This document shows, piece by piece, positions 5,895 to 23,359 of a stretch of 64,000 nucleotides of DNA (its first letter is position 1; every line of letters starts with the position of its first letter). Origin of the DNA: Candidatus Woesebacteria bacterium (lineage in GTDB: Bacteria > Patescibacteriota > Microgenomatia > UBA8517). Under the pieces are notes generated by a model that searched no databases, had not been told where the DNA came from, and worked only from the letters and a program-made list of their open reading frames with translations. The position numbers and the translations under genes were made by a program. The stretch spans positions 206,873 through 270,872 of the forward strand of contig CP058602.1 of assembly GCA_013426185.1 (NCBI GenBank), given 5' to 3'.

Positions 5895-5931
5895 AAGAAT
5901 AATATAACCTAAAGAAAGCTAAGGCAAGAAG

Positions 5932-7550: not shown

Positions 7551-9377
7551 TCAAGAAGATAATTGCTTTTCAAATTCAGAAAGGCTAAGGCAGTTGATAA
7601 CATCAGCTTTAGTTGCCCAGCCACGTCTTGCAACCGATATTCCCCACTTCATATTGTCCAGGTTGTCCTTATGATGCGAATCAGTACCTAAAGTAAATTT
7701 AACACCAACACCCAAAGCCTCCTTAACCAAAAAATCAGGCAAATCAAGACGCATCGGATCGGCATTAATTTCCAACCACTTTTTATTTTTCACACAAAAT
7801 TCAAAAATTTTCATCCAATCAGCATCAACTCCTTCTCTCTCTCCTATCTTTCTTGCAGTAGGATGAGCTAGAATCTTAGCCTTGGGATGAGACAGTGCCA
7901 AGATTAATCTTTTAGTCACTTCTTCTTTTGATTGTCTAAAACTAGAATGAATAGAGACCAAAGCAAAATCAAGCAATTCCAAAGCCTCATCAGGAATAGA
8001 AAGTTTTCCATCAGGTAAGATATCTATTTCAAGGCTATTGAACACTTTTTTTACTCCAATATTTTTAGCTTTTTCCTCTGAACAATTAAATTGTTCTTTC
8101 TTGATTGTTGTTAATTTTTGATTTAATTCGGCGACCTTTTCTCTTTTTCTCTTCAAAATATCTAAAATTTGGAATTTAGAATGTCTGCTTTTTGAAGGGT
8201 TGTGCTCTGTAAAAGCAATATATTCATAATTCAAGCTTGATGCTTTCTTAACAATATCCTCCATTGACGACTCTCCCAGATCATGGCTTGTCTCAATATC
8301 AAAGTCTGAATGAATCTGTAAATCCGCCTTAACATCATCAAGAGTAATTAAATTAGGAAGCTTATGATTCTCAGCTGCTTCAATCTCACCTGTATCTTCA
8401 CGCAATTCCGGAGGAATAAAATCAAGTCCCAAAAAATTATAAAACGATTTTTCGTCTGCAAACTTCTTGAGAGTATTCTCACTTTTTATTTTTATTCCAT
8501 ACTCAGAAAGACTAAGCCCCTTCTTCAAGGCATATTCCCTCAAAGCTATATTGTGGTGTTTGGAACCTGTGAAATGCTGCAAAAGCGAACCGTAAGAATC
8601 AGGGTCAACTACCATCAAATCCACTTGAATATCAGAAGGCAGAAGAATTGAAGCTTTCTTTTCCCCCTTTTCTATAACCCGAACAATTTTAGGATAGGCA
8701 ACAAAATGCTCAATGACACGTGATTGATTTCTTGAAGCTACAGCTATATCTATGTCACCAATGGTTGAAACCTGCCTTCTCAAGCTTCCTAATGCGTCCA
8801 CACGAAGCGCGTATTTACTCTCCTTGATCCAGTTAATTACATTTTCTGCGATTTGGCTTGCATAAGGCAAGAGCATCCTTTTATCTCTGCCTTTAAACTC
8901 AGAAATTGCTTTAAGGATATCCTTTTGAGATTCTTCTCCAAAACCTTCAAGCAAAGCAATCTTTCCTTCCAAGGCCTTCTTTTCAAGATCAGAAATAGGA
9001 TCTTTTGACGAAGAAAGATCTAAATCCTGAACCAGTTTCAAGGCAGTTTTTGGTCCCACCCTTGGCAATTCCATAAGAACAAAAACAGCCTCAGGAATCC
9101 CCTTTGTGACTTCCTCAAAATGACGCGATCTCCCTGTCTTGAAAATTTCAGCCAAATGAGAAGCTATTGAAGAACCAACGCCAGGGATTTGATCTAATTT
9201 TCCTTCATCATAAAGGTCTTTTGCTTCGCTTGAAAGGTGTTCAATTGCACTAGCTGCACGATCATAAGCAATGATCTTAAATTTATTTTTATCAGGATCC
9301 TTTATTTGATAAGAAGCCGATATTGCTCTTAAGAGATTTGCAATTTGCAAATTATTCAAATTCTTATCAATTTTCAT
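7551..9377 (-). CDS. DNA polymerase X family protein with C-terminal PHP phosphoesterase domain
   Basis: A helix-hairpin-helix polymerase-beta-like N-terminal half (LDQIPGVGSSIASHLAEIF) is followed by a PHP domain (IHSDFDIETSHD ... HPTARKIGEREG). The likely start is the internal ATG at 9375-9377 (MKIDKNL) rather than the ORF-track start at 9425. Confidence 0.75.
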   Translation of the reverse strand: MKIDKNLNNLQIANLLRAISASYQIKDPDKNKFKIIAYDRAASAIEHLSSEAKDLYDEGKLDQIPGVGSSIASHLAEIFKTGRSRHFEEVTKGIPEAVFVLMELPRVGPKTALKLVQDLDLSSSKDPISDLEKKALEGKIALLEGFGEESQKDILKAISEFKGRDKRMLLPYASQIAENVINWIKESKYALRVDALGSLRRQVSTIGDIDIAVASRNQSRVIEHFVAYPKIVRVIEKGEKKASILLPSDIQVDLMVVDPDSYGSLLQHFTGSKHHNIALREYALKKGLSLSEYGIKIKSENTLKKFADEKSFYNFLGLDFIPPELREDTGEIEAAENHKLPNLITLDDVKADLQIHSDFDIETSHDLGESSMEDIVKKASSLNYEYIAFTEHNPSKSRHSKFQILDILKRKREKVAELNQKLTTIKKEQFNCSEEKAKNIGVKKVFNSLEIDILPDGKLSIPDEALELLDFALVSIHSSFRQSKEEVTKRLILALSHPKAKILAHPTARKIGEREGVDADWMKIFEFCVKNKKWLEINADPMRLDLPDFLVKEALGVGVKFTLGTDSHHKDNLDNMKWGISVARRGWATKADVINCLSLSEFEKQLSS

Positions 9378-9462
9378 TATTAATAAAATTATAGCAAAAC
9401 AATTTGCACTAAATATAAAAGCCACAGCTTAAAGCTATGGCTTTTAAAGACGTGGGGGGAAA

Positions 9463-10219: not shown

Positions 10220-10765
10220 TTGGACCTCAAAAAAACACTTAAAACATTAAAACTTAATGAATCAACCATCAGTACTATTCTTGGTGTTATTGTTATTATC
10301 TTTGCCGGCGTTTTAGTTTTCAATTACCTTAAAAAAGGTAAGCAAGGTTCAACAGTTCCTGCAACAAATACCCAGATTGAAGAAAAAGAGGAAAATCAAA
10401 ATAACAAGAAAACATACACTGTTAAAAAAGGACAATCATTATGGATGATTGCAGAGGAAGTTTATGGATCAGGTTATAACTGGGTGGATATTGCCAAGGA
10501 GAATAATATTAAAAACCCAAATCTCATCAAAGAGGGGCAAGAATTAAAAATCCCTGCAGTCGAGGCTAAGATAGCCAAAACAACAGACGAGGCAAAAGAA
10601 AAGATCACAGGCGGCACTTATACAGTAGTTAAAGGCGATAATCTTTGGGAAATAGCAGTCAGAGCTTATGGAGATGGTTATAAATGGGTTGAGATTGCAA
10701 AGGAAAACAAGCTTGCCAATCCAAACTTAATTCATGCCGGAAATGTTTTAAGACTGCCGCGCTAG
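10220..10765 (+). CDS. Membrane-anchored protein with two LysM peptidoglycan-binding domains
   Basis: An N-terminal TM helix is followed by two LysM repeats (YTVKKGQSLWMIAEEVYG...LIKEGQELKIP and YTVVKGDNLWEIAVRAYG...LIHAGNVLRLP). The apparent start is TTG with a strong SD, and there is no in-frame ATG nearby. Confidence 0.75.
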   Translation: MDLKKTLKTLKLNESTISTILGVIVIIFAGVLVFNYLKKGKQGSTVPATNTQIEEKEENQNNKKTYTVKKGQSLWMIAEEVYGSGYNWVDIAKENNIKNPNLIKEGQELKIPAVEAKIAKTTDEAKEKITGGTYTVVKGDNLWEIAVRAYGDGYKWVEIAKENKLANPNLIHAGNVLRLPR

Positions 10766-11828: not shown

Positions 11829-13247
11829 ATGATCAAAATTCCTCTTAAATTTATCCTCATTTTAAGTCTTATTCCTATCTTTTTTATCGCTTCGATTGAT
11901 AGCGACCTTGGCTGGCATCTAAGATACGGAGGTTACTTTCTTGAAAACGGCAAATTTCTCAAAGAAAATATACTCACATATTTTCTTTCAGGCTACTATT
12001 GGCCTAACTCATATTCTCTTTACCAAGCTATAACCACAATCCTTTACAAAATTGGCAATCTACAGCTTTTAACTCTTAGCTACCTTCTGGTTATGCTTTT
12101 TTCTTTCTATCTACTTAATCTAACCTACCCCAAAACCACAAAAACAAACTATCTTCTTTTTTTACTTGGGGCAATTGCCTCCTGGCAGGTTTTCAGATTA
12201 GGCCCAAGAGCTCAAATTTATAGCTTTTTATTCTTTGTACTTACCAACTTCTACCTTAGCAAGATGATCGAAAAAGAGAATAAAAAATATTTTTTGATAT
12301 TACCCCTTCTTTTTCTTGTTTGGGTCAATTTCCACGGAGGATTCGTAGTTGGGTTTGCTCTTTTTCTTTATTACATTATAAAAAGCATCACTGATAAAAA
12401 ATGGGGTACAGCAACTTCAATTAGTCTTGTTTTTCTTGCTTCGCTTTTTGCCACCTTGATAAATCCATACAGTATAAAAATATATGCTGAAATAATACGC
12501 CATATCACCACACCATTAAGGCTCCTAATTGCCGAGTGGACCCCTTCGCCATTTTATATCAAATTAACTATTCTGACGTCCTCTATCTACTCGATACTTG
12601 TTTTACTCTTATCCAAAGCAAGAAATAAAATACCAAATTCAATATTTTTGCTGGTATTTATGTTTTCTGCGATAGAAGCAAAAAGAAACGTCCCTTTCTG
12701 ATCTTTATTTTTAACAATTACGATCCTTGACAGTTTGCAAGATAAAATAAAGGCAATTGAAAAAAATAGCATTATGACAAAGTTTGTTTATATCACTTCG
12801 CTTGCCGTTTTTATCTTTCCTATTTTTACCTCGCTACCCAAAAATGTCTCAATAATTTACGATCAAGATAGTTTCTGCCGTCAGGGGCTTTTGCCTTACC
12901 CTTGCAAAGCAGTTGAATTCATCAAGAAAGAAAAAATAGATGGCAAAAATGTCTTTTCTTCCTATGAATGGGGAGGATTTCTTGAATGGCAGCTGCCAGA
13001 ATATAAGTTCTTTGTTGATGGTAGAATGCCTGCATGGGAAACTAAAAACAAAGAAAGGCCATACACCACTTATCTAAAAATAATTCAAGCGCAAGAAGGC
13101 TGGGATAAAAAACTTGAAGAACACAAGACCGATTGGCTTCTTCTGCCGGCAAACACTTTTCTTGATTTGTATCTTCAAGAACAAAACTCAAATTGGAAAG
13201 AAATTTATCGGGATAAAATATCGGCAATTTATATCAAAAAAGAATAG
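11829..13247 (+). pseudogene. GT-C-like polytopic membrane protein (~470 aa) interrupted by a single in-frame TGA at 12699-12701
   Basis: ORFs 11829-12701 and 12735-13247 are in the same frame (both start at a multiple of 3). The 33 nt between them (SLFLTITILDS) has no further stop. The first extracytoplasmic loop contains SIDSDLGWHLRYG, a DxD-like motif. The C-terminal soluble domain (FVDGRMPAW) is typical of GT-C glycosyltransferases. Confidence 0.5.
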
Positions 13248-13278
13248 ATGTATAATATTAATACCTTGGAAAATGATA

Positions 13279-13353
13279 GCCAGCGTAGCTCAACGGTAGA
13301 GCAATCCCTTCGTAAGGGAGAGGTTGGAAGTTCAAATCTTCCCGTTGGCTCCA
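13279..13353 (+). tRNA. tRNA-Thr (anticodon CGT), CCA encoded
   Basis: GCCAGCGTAGCTCAACGGTAGAGCAATCCCTTCGTAAGGGAGAGGTTGGAAGTTCAAATCTTCCCGTTGGCTCCA. Anticodon loop TTCGTAA, T-arm GGAAGTTCAAATCTTCC, acceptor stem with one G-U pair. Confidence 0.8.
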
Positions 13354-13400
13354 GTCAAGACAGAAAGGCGGAGGATAATCCAACAACTAATACAACAAAT

Positions 13401-14117
13401 ATGAACAATGTTTATTCGAGAAGAGCTATAGTTCAGGAACGAAAAAACATAAGAAAGGCGGCTCTTTATATCCTCTTAACTATTTTAGCCATAATTATCT
13501 TTATTTTCTTTGGAATTCCCCTTATTGCCAAAACAGCCTCATTTATCGGAGAATTAAGAAAAAGCAACGGGCCGATTGAAAAAACAGACACCACGCCTCC
13601 TGCTTCGCCAACAATTCAATCCCCTCCTGAATACACCAATCAACCTAAAATAGAAATAAAAGGATCAACAGAACCTGGAATTAGCATCATAGTTAATGCT
13701 AATTCAAAAAAGGAAGAAATAATTTCAACCAAAGAAGGCCTCTTTACTTACACTTTTGAACTTAACGAAGGTGAGAACAAAATCTCTTTTATTGCCAAAG
13801 ACAATGCAGGTAACGAAAGTCAGGAATCGAAAGTCTATACTATAATTTATGACAATAAACCGCCAAAAATAACTATAGACTCACCAAAAGATGGAGAATC
13901 TTTCTATGGCTCCAAACAAAGGCAAATTGTAATTCAGGGTAAAGTAGAAGATGCAGACACCTTAAAAATAAACGATCGAATTGTAATTATTGAAAACGAT
14001 GGCAGTTTTACCTACGCAGTTACTCTTCAGGAGGGCGATAACAATTTTGAAATCGTAGCAAGCGACAAAGCAGGCAATACCACAACCGAAAGGCTCACCG
14101 TCCAGTTTTGGCGTTAG
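13401..14117 (+). CDS. Membrane-anchored surface protein with two bacterial Ig-like repeats
   Basis: The true start is probably the ATG at 13401 (MNNVYSRR), because the ORF-track N-terminus is translated tRNA-Thr. A TM anchor is followed by two about 90-aa repeats ending ISFIAKDNAGNESQESKVYTIIYDNKPP and NNFEIVASDKAGNTTTERLTVQF. Confidence 0.6.
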   Translation: MNNVYSRRAIVQERKNIRKAALYILLTILAIIIFIFFGIPLIAKTASFIGELRKSNGPIEKTDTTPPASPTIQSPPEYTNQPKIEIKGSTEPGISIIVNANSKKEEIISTKEGLFTYTFELNEGENKISFIAKDNAGNESQESKVYTIIYDNKPPKITIDSPKDGESFYGSKQRQIVIQGKVEDADTLKINDRIVIIENDGSFTYAVTLQEGDNNFEIVASDKAGNTTTERLTVQFWR

Positions 14118-15294
14118 AAGAAAACTCCAAAGCAAAAATAACTGCCAAGAAAGCCAAGATCCAAGGATAAAAAAGACTGTTATCAAACTGGCTGTGGACT
14201 AAAAGAGAGATAAAAGAGGCTCTGGTGGCAAAACCCAATTGGGAATAGCCTATCTTCTTAAAAATCTCAAATCCTAAATAAAAGATAATCATAAAACCAA
14301 CAATACCTAAAGTAGAAAGAATCAGTAAAAAAGAGGAGCTTGAGCCGCTGCAGCTATGAGTCAAGATATTATCAACGCCAAGAAAATTTCTTCGAGCAAG
14401 ACAAAGATTATCAAATCCAACACCAAAAAGCGGCGAATAAGAAAAAATCTTCAAAGTTTCTTTATAATCATTGACTCTATCTGAAACACTGTAAAGCCTT
14501 TTTAAATTAACCCCCTCCCCTGCAGGCTTGGGCACAAAAGACAAAATTAAGATAAACAATATCAAAAAAATACCAATTTTCAACCATTTTTCTTTGAATA
14601 AAAAGGAGAGATAAAAAACAGAAACCAATAAAGAAAAATAACTTGCTCTTGAAAAAGTCAGGGAAACGCCAAGCAAAAAAAGAAAAGCTAAAAATATAAA
14701 TCTTTTATGGCTAGTAGACTTATACTTCACCCAAGACAAGATAAAACCAAAAACAAAAATAATACCAGTAAAACCAGGGTCTAAAAAGGCGCCTGTCATT
14801 CGAAAAAGATGATCATCCCACCCCAAAAATTTAAGAGAGGTCAAATCAGGATAAAGAAAATATTGAACAAGACCAAACAAAAGAGAAAAAAATAAGACTG
14901 AAAGGAGGCTACCAAACAAAACTGCAATCATCTTCTTGTTTTCCCTCAAAAAATCAAATAATAAAAGGCAAAAACCCAAATAAAAGACAACTCTCGCAAA
15001 ATATAAAAAGCCAATCAAAACTTCTCTAGTCTTAAATAAAAAGGCAGAATATATGAAAGAAAAAATAAAAGGTAAAAATAAAGTCCAAAGATTTCGATTT
15101 AAAAAGTAACCTTTTATCTTGCCCGAGAAAATAAGCAAGATGAAACCAATAAAGGCCAGGAAATCAAGAAGAATAAAGGAAACCCTAAAACCAAACAAGT
15201 TAAAATCAAAGGCCAAAAGACGCCCAAAGGGAAAGGCAACAAGAAAAGAGAAAACTAAAAACTCAACTATTTTTTGCTTTTTTGTAAGAGCCAT
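14095..15294 (-). CDS. Wzy/O-antigen-ligase-like polytopic membrane protein (putative glycan polymerase)
   Basis: 399 aa with 10 or more TM helices and a large extracytoplasmic loop near the C-terminal third (O-antigen ligase/Wzy_C architecture). It lies in a glycan locus. Confidence 0.5.
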   Translation of the reverse strand: MALTKKQKIVEFLVFSFLVAFPFGRLLAFDFNLFGFRVSFILLDFLAFIGFILLIFSGKIKGYFLNRNLWTLFLPFIFSFIYSAFLFKTREVLIGFLYFARVVFYLGFCLLLFDFLRENKKMIAVLFGSLLSVLFFSLLFGLVQYFLYPDLTSLKFLGWDDHLFRMTGAFLDPGFTGIIFVFGFILSWVKYKSTSHKRFIFLAFLFLLGVSLTFSRASYFSLLVSVFYLSFLFKEKWLKIGIFLILFILILSFVPKPAGEGVNLKRLYSVSDRVNDYKETLKIFSYSPLFGVGFDNLCLARRNFLGVDNILTHSCSGSSSSFLLILSTLGIVGFMIIFYLGFEIFKKIGYSQLGFATRASFISLLVHSQFDNSLFYPWILAFLAVIFALEFSSNAKTGR

Positions 15295-16019
15295 AATTTA
15301 CTCCAAGACAAAAACGAATGAAAACTCATCAAAAGAGAAAAAACCAAGCCATAATTGCCATCTAAAAATCCTAACTTGAAGATAAAATTATCTAGAAATT
15401 TAGATGGCGGACAAAAAATTATCTTAAACAAATTTGATTTTTTCCCTTCCTCTAAGTTGGAGACAGCATGAAGATCAGAGTAAAAATTAATCTTATCAAT
15501 AAAATCTTTAAGACTGAAAGAAGTGTAATGATCAAGATAGTTATTCAGAGTCCCAACCTTTCCTTCTACTTCCCAAAACTCATGAACCTTGCGTTTCCAA
15601 ATTCCAGAATTTTTCCTTGCCAAGCGTAAAACTTTATCATCTTTTGCCTGCCCGTATTTTATTTCCCTTCCCAAAAAAAATGTTCTTCTTTTCAAAAAAT
15701 AACCTGAGATTTTGTTCAAAGGATCGTTGATTTTGCTTACAATTTCAAGTTTAAGAGATTCGGAAACTATTTCATCTGAATCAACAAACAAAACCCAATT
15801 TCCATTTGCCTTTTCAAGACCAAAATTGCGCTGAGAAGAAAAATCCCCAGCCAGTTTTCTTTGAAAGACTAAAGCCCCGAGACTTCTTGCAACCTCAACT
15901 GTCTTGTCTTCCGAAAAATCGTCTACTAAGATAATCTCATCACAGAAAGCCAAGCTCTCAAGACACAGCTTGATATTTTTTTCCTCATTCTTTGACAAAA
16001 CGACAGCTGAAAGCATCAT
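15267..16019 (-). CDS. Glycosyltransferase family 2
   Basis: AVVLSKNEEKNIKLCLESL...IILVDDFSEDKT...LFVDSDEIV (GT-A DxD). Confidence 0.75.
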   Translation of the reverse strand: MMLSAVVLSKNEEKNIKLCLESLAFCDEIILVDDFSEDKTVEVARSLGALVFQRKLAGDFSSQRNFGLEKANGNWVLFVDSDEIVSESLKLEIVSKINDPLNKISGYFLKRRTFFLGREIKYGQAKDDKVLRLARKNSGIWKRKVHEFWEVEGKVGTLNNYLDHYTSFSLKDFIDKINFYSDLHAVSNLEEGKKSNLFKIIFCPPSKFLDNFIFKLGFLDGNYGLVFSLLMSFHSFLSWSKLWLLQKSKK

Positions 16020-16061
16020 TTAATAATTTTAAGACTTTATCACACTCCAAACAACCAAAAA

Positions 16062-16943
16062 CTAAAAAATCCTCCTAAGCAAAAGGAATACTATCAAAAT
16101 CAAAAGCAAAAATAAGAAATGCCATTTGGAAAATCTGGCAAAAACTTCAACCAAAAGTGCGGGAGCTAGACCAAAATGCTTTTTAAAATAATAGAATCTG
16201 CTTTTCTTAAAAATTTTCTTTATATAGGGAGGGTCTTTTTTGCCACCAGACCAAAAATGAACAACTTCTGACTCAGGAATAATATATAACTTATAACCCA
16301 GCTTCTTAATTCTTATCCCCAAATCGCTTTCCTCAAAAAAAAGAAAAATATTTTCATCAAAACCGCCAATCCTTTCAAAAACATCCTTTCTAATCAAAAA
16401 GGCAGAACCAGGGACAACATCCACCTCTCTTTTTTGATTAAGAGGCAAATCTTTAAGCCAATAATCCCTTGATATTTTGTTATGAGGAAAAACTTTGTTC
16501 AGAAAAGAAAGAGCAACTATACCCCTAAGTGGAGTAAGTTCTCTTGACCCCAGCTGAGTAAAAATTTTACCCTTTTTATCAATCAAATTCGGAGCTACCA
16601 CTGTCACATCCTTATTTTTAACCAAAAAATCAACTAAAGTGTCTATAGAACCAGGTTTGATTAAAGTATCAGGATTTAAGATCATTAAAAAATCACCATT
16701 TGCAAGGGAGGCACCTAAGTTATTACCAGCTCCATAACCAATATTTCCCGGAGATTTTACATACTTTATCCGATTAAACTGCTTTTTTACCTCTTTTTCT
16801 ATCCTCTTTACCTCATTATTATCAACTACTATCACCTCAAAAGAAACTTTAGGCCTGTTTTCTTTAATTGATTTAAGACAACTAAAAAGTGCCTCTTTAT
16901 CTTTATAATAAACAATAATTATTGAGACTTTTACTTTTGACAT
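16062..16943 (-). CDS. Glycosyltransferase family 2
   Basis: KVSIIIVYYKDKEALFSCLKSI...VIVVDNN...DPDTL. GT2 fold. Confidence 0.75.
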   Translation of the reverse strand: MSKVKVSIIIVYYKDKEALFSCLKSIKENRPKVSFEVIVVDNNEVKRIEKEVKKQFNRIKYVKSPGNIGYGAGNNLGASLANGDFLMILNPDTLIKPGSIDTLVDFLVKNKDVTVVAPNLIDKKGKIFTQLGSRELTPLRGIVALSFLNKVFPHNKISRDYWLKDLPLNQKREVDVVPGSAFLIRKDVFERIGGFDENIFLFFEESDLGIRIKKLGYKLYIIPESEVVHFWSGGKKDPPYIKKIFKKSRFYYFKKHFGLAPALLVEVFARFSKWHFLFLLLILIVFLLLRRIF

Positions 16944-17689
16944 ATTGCTATAAAAAATTCAGCATTTTTAATATCTGAGGTAATAGGAAAATCGGAAGTT
17001 TTAAGCGATTCCTGAGTCGCGCGGCCAAAGAAAGCTCCCAATAATTTCCAAATCTTTTCTTTCAAAGGTTTTGGCAGCAGTTTTCTAATACCAAAACTAT
17101 CACCCTGCACCATTTTTTCTCTCGCTTTTTGTGACTTAAGAAAATCGTCGAAGGCACTCTTTGCCTTTTCGCTTTTTGACTGGCCCATTATTTCCACTCT
17201 CTTAAAATACTTCTTCAATAAAGAAGACAATTCATCATAACTATATTCCCTGATATGATAAGGGCTTCTTAATTTGCGGCCAACTCTTTTGGGCGTAGAC
17301 ATTATAAACTTGCCTTCTTTTTTTAGAACCCTCTTTACTTCAGAGAGCATTTTCCTATCATCTTCAATGTGTTCTAAAACTTCAAAAGAACAGACTGCGT
17401 CAAATTCATCATCTCCAAATGGCAAAAAGACAGCGTCGGCAAAAATAAAACTTGCACTACCTGAATAATGTTTCTTGGCATAAGATATTGCCTCTTTATC
17501 AGAGTCAACAGCAAAAACTTCAAAACTTTTTGAAAGCAAGTTGCTGCCATAACCTGTACCGCAGCCAAGGTCCAAAACTTTAATTCCTTTCTTAAGATTC
17601 GCTCGAGCGAATTCATAGCGCGCAAGTGACTCCTGAAACTGAAAATTAGCAGTAACACCCGGTATCACTCTTTCATTAAAATCCATCAT
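16931..17689 (-). CDS. Class I SAM-dependent methyltransferase
   Basis: SAM motif I, VLDLGCGTGYGSNLL, plus an acidic motif II, VFAVDSD. Confidence 0.7.
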   Translation of the reverse strand: MMDFNERVIPGVTANFQFQESLARYEFARANLKKGIKVLDLGCGTGYGSNLLSKSFEVFAVDSDKEAISYAKKHYSGSASFIFADAVFLPFGDDEFDAVCSFEVLEHIEDDRKMLSEVKRVLKKEGKFIMSTPKRVGRKLRSPYHIREYSYDELSSLLKKYFKRVEIMGQSKSEKAKSAFDDFLKSQKAREKMVQGDSFGIRKLLPKPLKEKIWKLLGAFFGRATQESLKTSDFPITSDIKNAEFFIAICQK

Positions 17690-17693
17690 AAAA

Positions 17694-18944
17694 TCATTTT
17701 TCTTTAAAGACTTTAGCCAAATAATAAAAGACCAAAGGAAGAGAAACTAAAGTGCCAAAAAGAGCCGAAAAACCAGCTCCCACTATACCAAATTTAATTA
17801 CTAGAGGAACAATAGTTAAACCAAGGCCCAAAATGCCAACTAAAGTAACTATTGTAGAATACTCTTGTTTATCAACGCCCAGGTAAAGAGAATGAGCAGA
17901 ACTTGCAATAGACCTTACTATACCAAAAATAGATAGGACCTTAATTACAGGAACGGCAGAAAGCCATTTTTCCCCCAAAACTATTCTTACCAAAGGATCT
18001 GTAAAGAAAAATAAAATCAAGCCAAAAGGAACAACCAAAGCAGAAATTGTCAAGGTAACTTTATAAAAAGCCTTCTTTAACCTTTCTTTATCGTCTTTAA
18101 TCAAATTATAAACAGGAAAGGTCACCTTGTTAAAAACCTGACCGACCTCGTAAACAGGAAGAGAGGAAATTTTATAAGCAACTTGATAAATTCCCAAAGA
18201 TTGAGTTCCCATTATTCTCCCTACCACCCAATCATCACCCTGCTCAAAAAGATAGTTAAAGACACCAGCAAAAGTTAACCATTTGCCTCGCGAGATGATA
18301 TACCTAATTTTTTCCTTCTCAAACTTAAATCTTGGAGTAGGTTTCAAAAAATAGAAGGAAAGAAAAACCTCAAGAAGGGCACTACCGATAAGGCCAATAG
18401 CTAGACTCAAAACAGACTTTGTTAAGAAAGCAAAAAGAATAGCAAGCGTTGCATCAAAAGAAAAAACAGAAAACCTTAAAAGAAACTCTTTTTTAAAATC
18501 AAGTTCCTTTTGAAAACTAACTATCATTGGGTTGATAAACCCTCTTAAAAAAGGCACTAAACTCAAAAAGAGAATTACATTTAAAGAAGCAGGACTGCCA
18601 AAGAAAAGAGAAACAGGATAACTAACAAGAATCATAAGAAAAGAAATTAACATACCGCGAAAGATAGAAACAACCCAAGCGGTATCAAGATAATGGACCA
18701 ACTTTTTACGCGATTGGATTAAGACAATATTTACTCCTGTTTCTGTTATTACCTCAAGAAAAGCAAGTATCAAAGAACCAACACCGTAAATACCAAACTG
18801 GTCAGGAGTTAGAAGCCTTGCCAAAATGGCTATCCTTAAAAAAGCTATCGCACGCGTCGAAGCCCTGAGAAGACCCATCCAAGAAACTCCCTTCGCCGCA
18901 TTTTTAAAGTATCCCACAGACAGATTGTAACCTAAAAATGGCAA
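17694..18944 (-). CDS. Wzx-type oligosaccharide flippase (MOP/polysaccharide biosynthesis protein family)
   Basis: 416 aa with about 12 TM helices and the Polysacc_synt N-terminal pattern (LLRASTRAIAFLRIAILARLLTPDQFG). Confidence 0.65.
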   Translation of the reverse strand: MPFLGYNLSVGYFKNAAKGVSWMGLLRASTRAIAFLRIAILARLLTPDQFGIYGVGSLILAFLEVITETGVNIVLIQSRKKLVHYLDTAWVVSIFRGMLISFLMILVSYPVSLFFGSPASLNVILFLSLVPFLRGFINPMIVSFQKELDFKKEFLLRFSVFSFDATLAILFAFLTKSVLSLAIGLIGSALLEVFLSFYFLKPTPRFKFEKEKIRYIISRGKWLTFAGVFNYLFEQGDDWVVGRIMGTQSLGIYQVAYKISSLPVYEVGQVFNKVTFPVYNLIKDDKERLKKAFYKVTLTISALVVPFGLILFFFTDPLVRIVLGEKWLSAVPVIKVLSIFGIVRSIASSAHSLYLGVDKQEYSTIVTLVGILGLGLTIVPLVIKFGIVGAGFSALFGTLVSLPLVFYYLAKVFKEK

Positions 18945-18956
18945 ATATTAAAGAAA

Positions 18957-19922
18957 TTATCTTTCAAAAATTCCTTTCAGAAGACCAAGAATTACAGCAA
19001 AATCAGAAACAATCTGAACCAAAGGCAAATAAAGACGCTCTTTTTTCGTTTTTAAAACATCTCTCCACTTGTAAATCGGCCACAAAAGATAAAGCAAAAA
19101 CAAAAAAGGAACCCAAAAATAGAATCGTGTAAATCTTAAAAACTGAACCGATAAAAACAAAAATAAAATATAACGAGCAAAGACTAAAATTATTTTAATA
19201 TTGTGCGACATTAGGCCTTTGGATGGATGCCAGAAAATTTTGGATTTAATATCTCCACAGGCATAGCTTGAAACCTTGCCAAAGAATTCTTTAAGACTGA
19301 GCTTCCCCGGTTCTCCCCACACTACCCTAGCCTCTTTTGCCCTTGCAATTTTCACGCCAGATTTCACAGCTTTATAAAAAAACAAAGAATCCTCACCTGT
19401 TTTCTTTAAGCTTTCATCAAAACCCCTTAGCTTTTCCCAAACTTCTTTTCTAAAAGCGACACTTCTTGTTGAAGGCAAAAAAGAGATGGGGTCAAATCTT
19501 TCCTCAGGAACTCCAAGATAACAAGATATTACCTTTCCGAAAGGAGTTGGGGCTGGCATTTCATAAAAACCAGCAACTATTCCTATTTCTTTATGCCTCA
19601 AAAAATAGACAAGATTTTCAAGCCAATCACGATAAGGCTCGCAACCGGCATCAGTCAAGGCAACTATCTCATTTTTGGCCAGACTTATGGATAAATTTCT
19701 GCCCTGAGCAATGGTTGATTTCTCAACAACAAGCCTAATGCTCTTATCTTTCTTTTGAAAATGCCTGATTATTTCAGCTGTTTTATCAGTTGATCCTCCA
19801 TCAACAATAACTATCTCATCAGGCTTTTTAGTCTGCTCCAAAAGCCCCTCCAATACCCTCCCAATCGTCTTCTCCTCATTCAAAACCGTCAAACAAACAG
19901 AAACTTTCATATCAAAAATCAA
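18957..19922 (-). CDS. Glycosyltransferase family 2 with C-terminal TM helices
   Basis: KVSVCLTVLNEEKTIGRVLEGL...IVIVDGGSTDKT...TDAGCE. Confidence 0.7.
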   Translation of the reverse strand: MIFDMKVSVCLTVLNEEKTIGRVLEGLLEQTKKPDEIVIVDGGSTDKTAEIIRHFQKKDKSIRLVVEKSTIAQGRNLSISLAKNEIVALTDAGCEPYRDWLENLVYFLRHKEIGIVAGFYEMPAPTPFGKVISCYLGVPEERFDPISFLPSTRSVAFRKEVWEKLRGFDESLKKTGEDSLFFYKAVKSGVKIARAKEARVVWGEPGKLSLKEFFGKVSSYACGDIKSKIFWHPSKGLMSHNIKIILVFARYILFLFLSVQFLRFTRFYFWVPFLFLLYLLWPIYKWRDVLKTKKERLYLPLVQIVSDFAVILGLLKGIFER

Positions 19923-19958
19923 AACAATTAAAACATAAAATCTGTCAAAAATTTTCGA

Positions 19959-20987
19959 TCAAGTTTTCCACAGCGTTAAATAAGTATCAGCCAATTTATC
20001 CCACGTTTGTTTCTTGACCCACTTGTAGCCTGGTTCTATTTTCTTTTCAGCCTCATTTGGATTAAGAGTATAAAATTCTACATACCTTGCCAATTCGCTA
20101 GAACTATTACATACCACAATCGACTTATAAAAAGGCGTCATCTTAAGATAATCTTCTTTCAAAGGATCGTCAAACATAGCAAAGACCAACTTCTTGCAAG
20201 CTAGAGCTTCTAAAATAGAGAGATAACCTGAGACAAAAGCAAATCTTGATTTTTGGATAAAATGAAAAGGGTCCTCCACAGCACCTTTATAAACTAAATT
20301 TTTACTCTCCTTTATTTTACTTTTATACTTTCCGTCACCCAAAACCAGAAGTTTAAATCTAAGATTTTTCTTAAGCAAAATCTTAAAAGTATCTAGATAC
20401 TTCAAAAAACAACTTTGATCATCAAGTCGGCCTAAATAAACTGCGTCATAAATCATTTCCTCATTTGTAAATGGATAAAACTTTTTAAAATCTACTCCTC
20501 CATAAGTTACAAAACTCGGTCTGGTACCAAACCATTTTTCAATAAAAGATCCCACACAAATATTACCCCTAGTTAACTTCTCAGCCATCTTTTGATAAAA
20601 AATCGCTTTTCTGCTTAATGGAAAAGAAGGATAACCATGAAAGGTAATATACACAGGCTTGTTAGGAAATAAAAACCTAAACGGCAAGTACCAGATAAAC
20701 ACATCGTGTATATGAACAATTTCAGCTCTCTTAATTTCATCTAGATAATGAGAAAATAACTTAAACCAAATTAAAAGAAGCCCCACAAACTTAATCTTGG
20801 GATAATCAAATCTCAAAACCCTTACTTTACCCAGAAATTCATCATCTGAAAGATTTTCATTGTACTTTTCTGTGATTACAGTTACAAAAGCTCCCTTGTT
20901 GCACAAAACACTAGCTACACTAGATACGTGTCTCTCCACCCCCCCTATATGCGGATTGAAATACTTTGCAAACATCAAAACCCTCAT
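19959..20987 (-). CDS. Glycosyltransferase (GT-B fold, GT4-like)
   Basis: MRVLMFAKYFNPHIGGVERHV, an N-terminal GT4-type donor-binding pattern; 342 aa. Confidence 0.55.
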   Translation of the reverse strand: MRVLMFAKYFNPHIGGVERHVSSVASVLCNKGAFVTVITEKYNENLSDDEFLGKVRVLRFDYPKIKFVGLLLIWFKLFSHYLDEIKRAEIVHIHDVFIWYLPFRFLFPNKPVYITFHGYPSFPLSRKAIFYQKMAEKLTRGNICVGSFIEKWFGTRPSFVTYGGVDFKKFYPFTNEEMIYDAVYLGRLDDQSCFLKYLDTFKILLKKNLRFKLLVLGDGKYKSKIKESKNLVYKGAVEDPFHFIQKSRFAFVSGYLSILEALACKKLVFAMFDDPLKEDYLKMTPFYKSIVVCNSSSELARYVEFYTLNPNEAEKKIEPGYKWVKKQTWDKLADTYLTLWKT

Positions 20988-21070
20988 TGGCTTTAAAAAA
21001 CTAAAAAGATCATATTGACAACAAAATTAGAATCATGATTAACTGTAATAAATACAAGAGATTTCAATTT

Positions 21071-23017
21071 ATGAGAATAAACAAAAATTTAATTTCAATC
21101 ATTTTATCACTCTCACTCATAAATTACCTACTTTTACCCCGCTTAATAGCAAGACAGGCTGACGCACAAAACAGTGTACTTCTTTCTGACAATTTTGATG
21201 ATGGCGATTCTGATGGTTGGGAAGAACATACTTTCAATGGAGATTGGTTTGTAAATAACGGTGAGTACTGGGGAACAGCATCTCCGAGCGGAACGATAAG
21301 CAAAAATTCTTACACTGTTAGAGGAGATACTTCTTGGAAAAACTATAGCTACTCTGTAAAAGTAAGAAGTGAGGAAAAAGATGACGCTGACAAAATTATA
21401 TTCTTCTATTTCAATAAAGACCGAGCCGCATACGAGGTAAATCTCAGAAGCCAATACGACTCATCACATGGTAATGACATCGTACTATTTAAATCCCCCA
21501 ACTTAGACTCTACAGCAGGCAGTATTCTAAGTCAAAAAAACATAGACAATTACCCAAAAACAGACTATACAATAAAAGTAGAGGCAAGAAACATTGGGGA
21601 AGATGTACAGATAAAAATATATGTAGACTCCAAACTTCTTATCGAATATACAGACAAAAAGACAGAAAACAACACCCCAATATACAATGGAGCAGTAGGT
21701 TTGTTGGTCTGGACACAAACACCCCACACAACAGCTTTCGATGATGTTTTGGTGAAAAGCCTAGACACACCACCAACCCCACACGTTGAAAAAGTCATTC
21801 TTGCTCCTGGGATGGGGGCAAGTTGGAACACAGAGGCGATCCTCAATTGCAAGCTTAATGGATATCAAGGTAATTGGACAATGGCGCCTTTTGCTGAAGA
21901 CATTTATAACCCTCTGATCTCATCGCTTCAAGATAATGGTTTTCAAGTCATTCCTTTTTATTACGACTAGAGAAAACAAATTCAATCACACAGCACAAAC
22001 ATATCAAACTTAATAACAAACCTAAACCTTGGTGAGAATGAAAAAGTTGATTTTGTTGGTCACAGTATGGGTGGTCTTGTCGGCAGAGCCTATCTTGAAA
22101 GTGGCAGCGATAAAATCTACAAATACATTTCAGCAGGATCACCTCATCAGGGGACTGCTCTTGCCTACCCTGCGTGGTACGGAGGCGAGATATGGAATAA
22201 CAGTTTGGTAACCAAAATCGCAGCCACACTTCTGATTAAGCGCTGCGGAATCAATCACAAAAACGATATGGAAACACTAAGAGAAATCGCCCCTTCTTTT
22301 CGAGATCTACTTCCAATTTATCCATTCCTCATAGATAAAAAAACAGGAATTCTCAAAGGTATAGACACAAATCAATGGCTTGGGAAAAGCGTGTTTCCGC
22401 CAACTGGGACAGCTACAATCATAGCTACTCTTTCGGGAAATGGTTTTGATACCCTAGAAAACATTATAACAAAAGAACCTTCTAAAAAGGAAAAGAAACT
22501 CGGTCTTTGGGAAGAAGGCAAGCCAGCAGGAAAAGAAACAACAACTAAGGGAGACGGAACTGTGCTTTCAAAAAGCGCCAAAATAGAAAATAAAAAGGTT
22601 ACAAACTTTGAAATTAATCAAAACCATGGAGGTCTAGTGACATCACAGGAAGGAATAAATACCATCATAAATTTTCTTAAGGGAGAAAAATCAGCTCTAT
22701 CAGCAACGTCTTTAATCACTGGTGAAGAACCAAAATCCGCACTGGTAATGATAGCCTACCCGTCTACTTTTGTCTCAATTGATCCTCAAGGGAAAATCAA
22801 AAGAGACAAACACAATGTGGTAACTCAAATTAATCCCAAATCAGGAAAATACAAAGTTGGCTTTCTTCCTCTTGCTGATGAATCAACTCTCCTTATCGGG
22901 CAATTCCTTAAAAATGGCGACTATTCCTGGAAAGAATACAAAATAAAAGGAAGATTACCTTTTGCCAAGACTATAAAATTTGACGAGAATACTCTCACTG
23001 AAAATCCCCTGCAATAA
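21071..23017 (+). pseudogene. Secreted LamG/DUF1080-like domain + class-2 lipase-like alpha/beta hydrolase, interrupted by one in-frame TAG at 21968-21970
   Basis: ORF 21035-21970 and ORF 22067-23017 share one frame with no other stop between them. Read through, the sequence is ...VIPFYYD*RKQIQSHSTNISNLITNLNLGENEKVDFVGHSMGGLVGRAY, a complete lipase nucleophile elbow (GHSMGG) preceded by its normal upstream segment. A signal peptide, MRINKNLISIILSLSLINYLLLPRLIARQADA, follows the ATG at 21071. Confidence 0.6.
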
Positions 23018-23050
23018 TTAAGGTCTATTTTACTACATCTAATCATAAAG

Positions 23051-23070
23051 CCACGCGCTTTAGCGTGTGG
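23051..23070. other. Hairpin CCACGCGC-TTTA-GCGTGTGG (one G-U position)
   Basis: Seen directly in the sequence. It is the first of two tandem hairpins that share AAAGCCACG...TTTAG...GTGGAT flanks. Confidence 0.5.
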
Positions 23071-23101
23071 ATGTAGAATAGTTTAGATGGAGCCAAGAAA
23101 G

Positions 23102-23128
23102 CCACGGCCTTTAGGCCGTGGATTTTTT
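23102..23128 (+). terminator. Rho-independent terminator: CCACGGCC-TTTA-GGCCGTGG followed by ATTTTTT
   Basis: Perfect 8-bp GC-rich stem with a 4-nt loop and a 6-T run, 85 nt downstream of the lipase-gene stop. It is paralogous to the hairpin at 23051. Confidence 0.6.
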
Positions 23129-23159
23129 ACTTCACAATTACAAAAAAATATTTTTATTT

Positions 23160-23185
23160 GTATCCGTGTACTAGTACACGGATAC
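23160..23185. promoter_or_regulatory. 26-bp perfect palindrome GTATCCGTGTACTAGTACACGGATAC (operator-like or bidirectional terminator)
   Basis: Perfect dyad symmetry around CTAG, flanked by A/T runs, in the convergent intergenic zone between the lipase gene and the 23360-24034 gene. Confidence 0.45.
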
Positions 23186-23359
23186 AACACACAAATAGAT
23201 ATCTGTCAAATATCAAGAATAAAGAATCTCTTACAAAAAATAGATCAGCGTATATCAGGCTTGCCACCAAAAATTAAAAAAGAAGCCGATACATAGGACA
23301 CAAGAATAAAAATTATATATTCCGAAATTAAACTTTCTTGAACTTGAAAAAACAAACAA

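Follow-up and report, generated by a model that had tools for sequence, protein, structure and literature searches.

In Gracilibacteria and Absconditabacteria of the candidate phyla radiation (CPR), UGA is read as glycine (genetic code 25), and recoding of UAG is known from phages. Premature stops in CPR genes have also been described as plain lesions: in Roizmanbacteria from hot springs, CasY is fragmented by nonsense and frameshift mutations that are found in 82 to 100% of reads (PMC6509639). Here we describe an in-frame TAG in a gene for a secreted lipase-like enzyme (below, the lipase gene), located in a stretch of 64,000 nucleotides (nt) from a Candidatus Woesebacteria bacterium (Microgenomates, CPR; contig CP058602.1, positions 206,873 to 270,872). 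This whole stretch, with a GC content of ~36%, is referred to as the window. FtsZ shows 85% identity to that of Candidatus Woesebacteria isolate Ch104a, and Woesebacteria figure prominently in the named hits ranked next. The TAG is very probably a genuine and very recent nonsense mutation, giving a strain-private loss-of-function allele, that is, a nascent pseudogene. Of the three options offered when the break was first noted (pseudogene, local assembly error, or stop-codon suppression), loss of function is the one that the evidence supports.

The lipase gene shares with CPR stop-codon reassignment an in-frame stop within a conserved gene of a CPR bacterium. It differs from code 25 in its codon, UAG instead of UGA, and in its lineage, Woesebacteria, and it differs from reassignment in CPR bacteria and phages in that the three stop codons are used about equally here and that the one in-frame TAG in 64 kb is common to no relative. 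With fragmented CasY (PMC6509639) it has in common one base substitution, a premature stop, an intact gene in close relatives, and one population; for the lipase gene the parent allele was recovered, with no other base changed, whereas a read-level frequency was given for CasY alone. The encoded protein resembles hydrolases of the LCAT/LPLA2 (group XV phospholipase A2), PGAP1-like, and Bacillus LipA types in its Y-D-W-R motif followed ~30 residues on by G-H-S-x-G-G and in its invariant Ser, Asp, and His. However, the matches to these types are weak and confined to the stretch between Y-D-W-R and the nucleophile elbow (~50 to 110 residues), and the architecture here is Microgenomates-specific, with a signal peptide, a CBM66/LamG-like jelly roll, the hydrolase, and a C-terminal beta-sandwich.

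RESULTS

A single TAG interrupts one gene

The TAG at 21968-21970 is the sole in-frame break in the lipase gene. Exactly as described in the original prediction, open reading frames (ORFs) 21035-21970 (311 amino acids [aa]) and 22067-23017 (316 aa) lie in one frame, the 96 nt between them (21971-22066) are free of stops, and the peptide read across the TAG is ...VIPFYYD-stop-RKQIQSHSTNISNLITNLNLGENEKVDFVGHSMGG... In the orthologue alignment, orthologues P0001 to P0003 begin with MRINK, which corresponds to the second Met, at 21071, and not to that at 21035. The closest single-ORF homologues in the protein database were 642 to 654 aa long and showed 89 to 95% identity over 98% of the read-through translation, and the Pfam alignments of LCAT (residues 290 to 397) and Palm_thioest (303 to 375) span the TAG. 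Given these alignments and the full-length single-ORF orthologues, the ORF pair is not a chance juxtaposition. Across all six frames, seven same-frame pairs of open stretches of at least 100 codons split by one stop were found in the window; the pairs other than that of the lipase gene were adjacent genes or a TGA-interrupted gene 9 kb away. The view that a single gene for a secreted jelly-roll and lipase-like hydrolase protein is cut by TAG just before its GHSMGG elbow is therefore supported, and in annotation the two ORFs are best merged into a single disrupted gene instead of being listed as two proteins.

In the structural model of orthologue P0001, the Y-D-W-R motif that is hit by the stop stands after strand 292-295 and before helix 304-317 of the hydrolase core. 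The TAG precedes the codons of all three putative catalytic residues, Ser, Asp, and His. The Ser codon (AGT, 22064-22066) is directly followed by the first downstream start codon (ATG, 22067-22069). Since the Ser codon is upstream of this ATG, neither ATG-delimited ORF would encode an active enzyme, and of the putative triad only Asp (22553-22555) and His (22625-22627) fall inside the downstream ORF. The earlier claim that neither half works alone as an enzyme thus held, but its assignment of the catalytic Ser to the downstream ATG-delimited ORF did not, the Ser codon being in the linker between both ORFs.

The stop codon is one transition away from an intact parent allele

The Trp of Y-D-W-R was shared by 13 of 13 homologues, both close and distant, and was invariant in a larger set of 66 homologues (66/66), down to ~32% identity. 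At the DNA level, the codon at the stop position was TGG in all ten other alleles recovered. The TGG alleles include those of L002/L003, L004 to L007, L008, L009, L010, L011, L102, and L103, and further ones were found on three Joint Genome Institute metagenome contigs by an exact-pattern scan that permitted A or G at that base; an exact-pattern scan of GTDB representative genomes gave no hit. In the same gene neighborhood, the gene was intact in L103 (648 aa), L002/L003 (646 aa), L004 to L007 (642 aa), L008 (651 aa), and L102 (654 aa). None of the orthologues was split at the TAG position, and with 10 of 10 other alleles intact the idea of a conserved two-gene organization with the same break, which had been put forward as a reason to dismiss the interruption, fails. 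The two fragment proteins (299 and 316 aa) are recorded from the SRR6186653 sample alone.

The closest allele was that of L103, contig DYEL01000014.1 of metagenome-assembled genome (MAG) GCA_020725745.1, which is 99.81% identical to window positions 2774 to 23247 (38 mismatches, no gaps). In the lipase gene, window and L103 differ at 1 of 1,947 nt, A versus G at 21969, and the L103 gene is called intact. Almost all mismatches (35/38) lie in one tract, 17922-19704, which covers the flippase and GT2 genes of a polysaccharide locus and is evidently a segment that recombination has recently brought into a background otherwise close to clonal. Outside this tract only three differences were found in ~18.7 kb, at 5905, 9037, and 21969. 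All three are G:C-to-A:T transitions and derived in the window, with L102 as the outgroup, consistent with the ordinary build-up of point mutations under an AT-biased spectrum. Thus, the TAG was derived from TGG and not the reverse. No further lesion was seen in the lipase gene: it showed zero other differences from L103, no frameshift, and no second stop. With no other difference from L103, the TAG event must be extremely recent; as judged from the sequence, the allele appears nascent, not eroded, and the lesion of negligible age.

The lipase gene is a recombination mosaic. Its jelly-roll part (codons 1 to 270) is identical to that of L002, and its hydrolase part alternates L009-like and L010-like segments. 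Decay after the stop was also considered on the basis of the ratio of nonsynonymous to synonymous substitution rates (dN/dS), as, in comparison with L002, L004, and L008, every codon change specific to the window (33/33, mostly synonymous) was at or after the stop. This test was rejected. The changes are L009/L010-like recombination imports, and since all 33 are present in the intact L103 allele, dN/dS is uninformative on decay.

The interrupting base is reproduced in a second assembly

Contig SRR6186653_69956 of the independent Logan assembly of SRR6186653 was 100% identical to window positions 12067 to 23056 (10,990 nt), TAG and TGA included. An assembler artifact is unlikely because this assembly reproduces the TAG, and the local assembly error that had been listed among the options finds no support. 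A different concern is that the TAG is a sequencing or consensus artifact or a minority variant, with TGG as the real population codon, owing to base-calling, polishing, or strain-mixture error. The near-identical L103 genome has G at 21969, and the TAG allele is on record from one sample only, as such an error would predict; but the two assemblies agree without a mismatch, the window lineage carries two more derived G:C-to-A:T single-nucleotide polymorphisms outside the gene and so is a distinct lineage with real mutations, and the local sequence GACTGGAGA is without an error-prone homopolymer or repeat. We regard this explanation as improbable.

TAG terminates translation at a normal rate

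Among the 60 window ORFs of at least 110 aa, terminators were evenly spread (TGA, 21; TAA, 20; TAG, 19), and 18 of the 59 ORFs other than the lipase ORF end in TAG. These include the LysM ORF 10220-10765, correctly cited earlier as an example of TAG as a normal stop, and housekeeping genes with orthologues of equal length. No second gene with an in-frame TAG was present within the 64 kb. The window encodes tRNAs for Asp, Gly, Thr, and Val only, and neither a CUA-anticodon (suppressor) tRNA nor a release-factor GGQ motif was found in it. Rfam searches of the whole window gave the four tRNAs as the only matches and no recoding element or riboswitch near the lipase gene. No report of stop-codon recoding in Woesebacteria was found in the literature. 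Because TAG is not depleted as a terminator and the in-frame stop is not conserved, the lipase TAG is not a member of the class of stop-codon reassignment or programmed read-through. Insertion of pyrrolysine at the TAG was set aside as well: the window showed no pyl genes, an invariant Trp occupies this column, and the relatives are without TAG.

A gene kept functional by read-through or recoding, be it by a suppressor tRNA, near-cognate decoding, or adenosine-to-inosine (A-to-I) editing that turns UAG into UIG, decoded as Trp, with the same at UGA 12699-12701, is very unlikely. Both in-frame stops stand at Trp codons, as this explanation would have it, but TGG is simply among the codons that are one transition from a stop. 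The frame downstream of the TAG is fully intact, but this is expected regardless in an allele with zero other differences from its parent. In the TGA-interrupted gene, the ratio of nonsynonymous to synonymous polymorphism (pN/pS) downstream of the stop was low (0.17) in comparison with TGG-bearing L002, but the TGA allele is without variation (100% identity) in its carriers and thus gives no evidence of post-stop selection. Further against read-through are the 18 other ORFs that end in TAG, the absence of a CUA-anticodon tRNA from the window, and the absence of the stop from all 10 other alleles. RNA folding yielded a weak hairpin at the TAG site (-7.3 kcal/mol, z -3.0), with the stop codon partly paired in the stem and not in the loop, and no structure at the TGA site. 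A tRNA-anticodon-like loop was absent at both sites, and there was no UACG motif at the position that would be edited. No significant or tRNA-like structure places the A of the stop in a loop, so neither editing nor a structured read-through signal finds support.

Stop-codon suppression, as had also been suggested, finds no support: TAG terminates at a normal rate, the window encodes no suppressor tRNA, and the stop is not conserved. We consider read-through to be probably absent. The more specific proposal that UAG 21968 and UGA 12699 are both bypassed as Trp, by A-to-I editing (UAG to UIG, UGA to UGI) or by a Trp-inserting suppressor, is scarcely credible; if it were true, a conditional bypass of stop codons would let these Woesebacteria tolerate, or even regulate, such genes of the surface and envelope.

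The TGA 9 kb away is a separate event

The TGA at 12699-12701 interrupts a gene for a polytopic membrane protein (11829-13247) without a Pfam match. L002 reads TGG (Trp) at this position, so that the TGA, too, is a TGG-to-stop change. Copies of the gene were compared from the window, L002 (753-2171), L004 (759-2177), and L099 to L105. The split arrangement (290 plus 157 aa) was found on at least nine contigs from many samples, and TGA carriers fully covered by the comparison were 100% identical over the gene, except L004, which differs by 12 nt upstream of the stop. L002 alone reads TGG and is itself interrupted at codon 33 by an independent stop; every copy seen of the gene was interrupted. 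Between window and L002, pN/pS was 0.50 before the TGA and 0.17 after it, values that mostly reflect the time before the lesions. The gene may be a widespread pseudogene, its split may be tolerated, or its UGA may be leaky.

The original prediction had joined TAG and TGA in one phenomenon. The TAG is private to one sample, whereas the TGA allele is widespread; the two arose separately and differ in age and frequency, with no evidence of a shared decoding peculiarity. Both stops are in keeping with a recombining population in which envelope and surface genes are dispensable and turn over quickly.

Domains and family of the encoded protein

The AlphaFold model of P0001, an orthologue with 95% identity, had a mean predicted local distance difference test (pLDDT) score of 90.5 and contains the strand-Ser-helix elbow. 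At the N terminus, an n-region is followed by a hydrophobic core and a cleavage-type A-D-A site, which together with the model (helix 5-26, then a low-confidence linker) point to a signal peptide. On the jelly roll, PF06439 (3keto-disac_hyd) scored 28.1 bits versus a cutoff of 26.8. The best Foldseek match of this domain was 4b1l (CBM66 of a Bacillus levanase; TM[target], 0.84; root mean square deviation, 2.4), and levanase CBM66 and 4jqt were also matched in a profile search of the PDB.

For the hydrolase, Pfam was run on the read-through translation with X at the stop, and Palm_thioest (35.9 versus 26.8), PGAP1 (27.3 versus 24.3), and LCAT (25.7 versus 21) were above their cutoffs. Lipase_2 (PF01674) was absent among the Pfam hits at E ≤ 0.1. 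In the PDB profile search, the region from the motif to the elbow matched Bacillus LipA, Burkholderia lipases, and LPLA2 (4x90); the match to Bacillus LipA chains, seen in this search only, covered ~50 residues (E ~ 1e-5). By fold, the closest Foldseek hits of the hydrolase domain were BlEst2 and family I lipases. The earlier label of a class-2 (Bacillus LipA/PGAP1-like) lipase is thus loosely right: PGAP1 is above its cutoff, but Lipase_2 is unmatched and LipA appears by profile search only. From these matches, "lipase-like, LCAT/PGAP1-type" is the safer label.

Relatives of the lipase-like gene bear other N-terminal modules, with Kelch, PQQ-propeller, or GH32/43-like domains in distant members (Pfam), and in P0004 and P0005 an unrelated N-terminal domain is joined to a nearly identical hydrolase. 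A paralogue search found no paralogue of the gene in the 64-kb window.

Surrounding locus

The coordinates of the features are collected in Table 1. Downstream of the lipase gene are two related hairpins, 51 nt apart and with compensatory changes in their stems; the second, with its T-run, is likely a terminator. The Logan contig SRR6186653_69956 terminates within the first hairpin. An intergenic segment of ~275 nt (23033-23307), which includes a perfect 30-nt palindrome (23158-23187) and has no Rfam match, is absent from L002, L003, and L013, and the spacer after the lipase gene measures ~365 nt in L004 and L008 versus 81 nt in L002.

Elsewhere in the window, the 289-aa ORF 13248-14117 for an immunoglobulin-like/Glucodextran_B surface protein overlaps a predicted tRNA-Thr(CGT) (13279-13353) of the same orientation. 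The gene calls of L002 and L004 are shorter, with 238 aa, and start after the tRNA-Thr, at the equivalent of window position ~13401, which is probably the true start. At 18957-20987 on the reverse strand, a GT4-like ORF (342 aa) and a GT2 ORF (321 aa) in the same frame, with a TGA and a short spacer between them, were considered as another split gene and rejected; they are adjacent genes because their Pfam families differ and every relative has them as two separate genes.

Table 1. Positions in the window of the parts of the lipase gene, of its neighboring hairpins, and of isolated differences from L103
Feature	Position	Strand	Remarks
Whole disrupted gene	21071..23017	+	649 codons, counting internal TAG and terminal TAA; alternative upstream ATG at 21035
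Predicted signal peptide (MRINKNLISIILSLSLINYLLLPRLIARQADA)	21071..21166	+	Read from sequence; A-x-A site, putative cleavage
N-terminal concanavalin/LamG-like jelly roll, CBM66-like fold	21194..21754	+	Pfam 3keto-disac_hyd (PF06439), residues 54-240
Y-D-W-R motif, here TAC GAC TAG AGA	21962..21973	+	Y, D, and W invariant in 66 homologues, R nearly so
Premature TAG, TGG to TAG by G to A at 21969	21968..21970	+	TGG in L002, L004, L008-L011, L012-L014, L102, L103
Nucleophile elbow G-H-S-M-G-G	22058..22075	+	H, S, G, G invariant; strand-turn-helix 326-343 in model
Putative catalytic Asp (in G-D-G-T-V)	22553..22555	+	Invariant D507 in alignment A1, D495 in A2; triad role putative
Putative catalytic His (in N-Q-N-H-G-G)	22625..22627	+	Invariant H531 in A1, H517 in A2; triad role putative
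C-terminal all-beta domain (beta-sandwich; approximate limits)	22739..23014	+	Strands at residues 555-636 of P0001 model, pLDDT >90
Two related hairpins downstream of lipase gene	23047..23128	+	23047-23072 and 23098-23123, second followed by T-run
Isolated difference from L103	5905		Intergenic
Isolated difference from L103	9037		R to K in PolX-like polymerase gene 7551-9425
Isolated difference from L103	21969		Nonsense

DISCUSSION

We propose that in one Candidatus Woesebacteria strain a single G-to-A transition at 21969 turned the invariant Trp codon of Y-D-W-R into TAG. Translation would then end after residue 299 (counted from 21071). Beyond its signal peptide, the secreted product would carry the jelly roll but only ~58 residues from the start of the hydrolase core, up to the strand before Y-D-W-R, and would be without the Ser, Asp, or His. 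The downstream 349 codons would either stay untranslated or give, from the ATG at 22067, a protein piece that stays in the cytoplasm and in which the Ser and the initial strands of the fold are missing. No Shine-Dalgarno (SD)-like sequence was found at a proper distance before this ATG, and re-initiation there is unsupported. From this layout we infer that enzyme activity has been lost.

One could imagine that the interruption has left a functional two-part arrangement or a neofunctionalized truncation, with the N-terminal fragment acting as a secreted carbohydrate-binding protein, with both halves cooperating, or both. The signal peptide and the complete jelly roll are indeed kept upstream of the stop. 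Yet no orthologue is so organized, the break separates a strand from a helix within the alpha/beta core, and the Ser codon is outside both ATG-delimited ORFs, with no properly spaced SD-like sequence before ATG 22067. The downstream part is without a signal peptide, so that the halves would be in different compartments, and the allele is only one mutation old and is split in no other sample. A retained function of this sort is highly improbable.

Some points weigh against the reading of the TAG as a nascent loss-of-function allele. The window MAG and the Logan contig may share the same reads. The support comes from assemblies, so the A at 21969 may be fixed in the population or only the majority base, although we take fixation to be the likelier state. 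A suppressor tRNA and release factor 1 (RF1) were assessed within the 64 kb, a scope compatible with a suppressor encoded elsewhere or with loss of RF1. Finally, the lack of a second lesion downstream means that there is no independent sign of decay; a young mutation and a gene maintained by read-through would both fit.

The lipase TAG is a standard nonsense pseudogene or loss-of-function polymorphism, of a kind that is already known. Its value is that of a clean natural case, in which an uncultivated CPR population offers a loss-of-function allele that just one mutation separates from the intact form it came from. The gene concerned is part of a family found across Microgenomates, whose members are secreted lipase-like enzymes with exchangeable N-terminal binding modules and with alleles that recombine into mosaics. 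CPR bacteria are thought to be unable to make their own lipids, and on general grounds such secreted lipase-like enzymes may be plausible candidates for the scavenging of host lipids.

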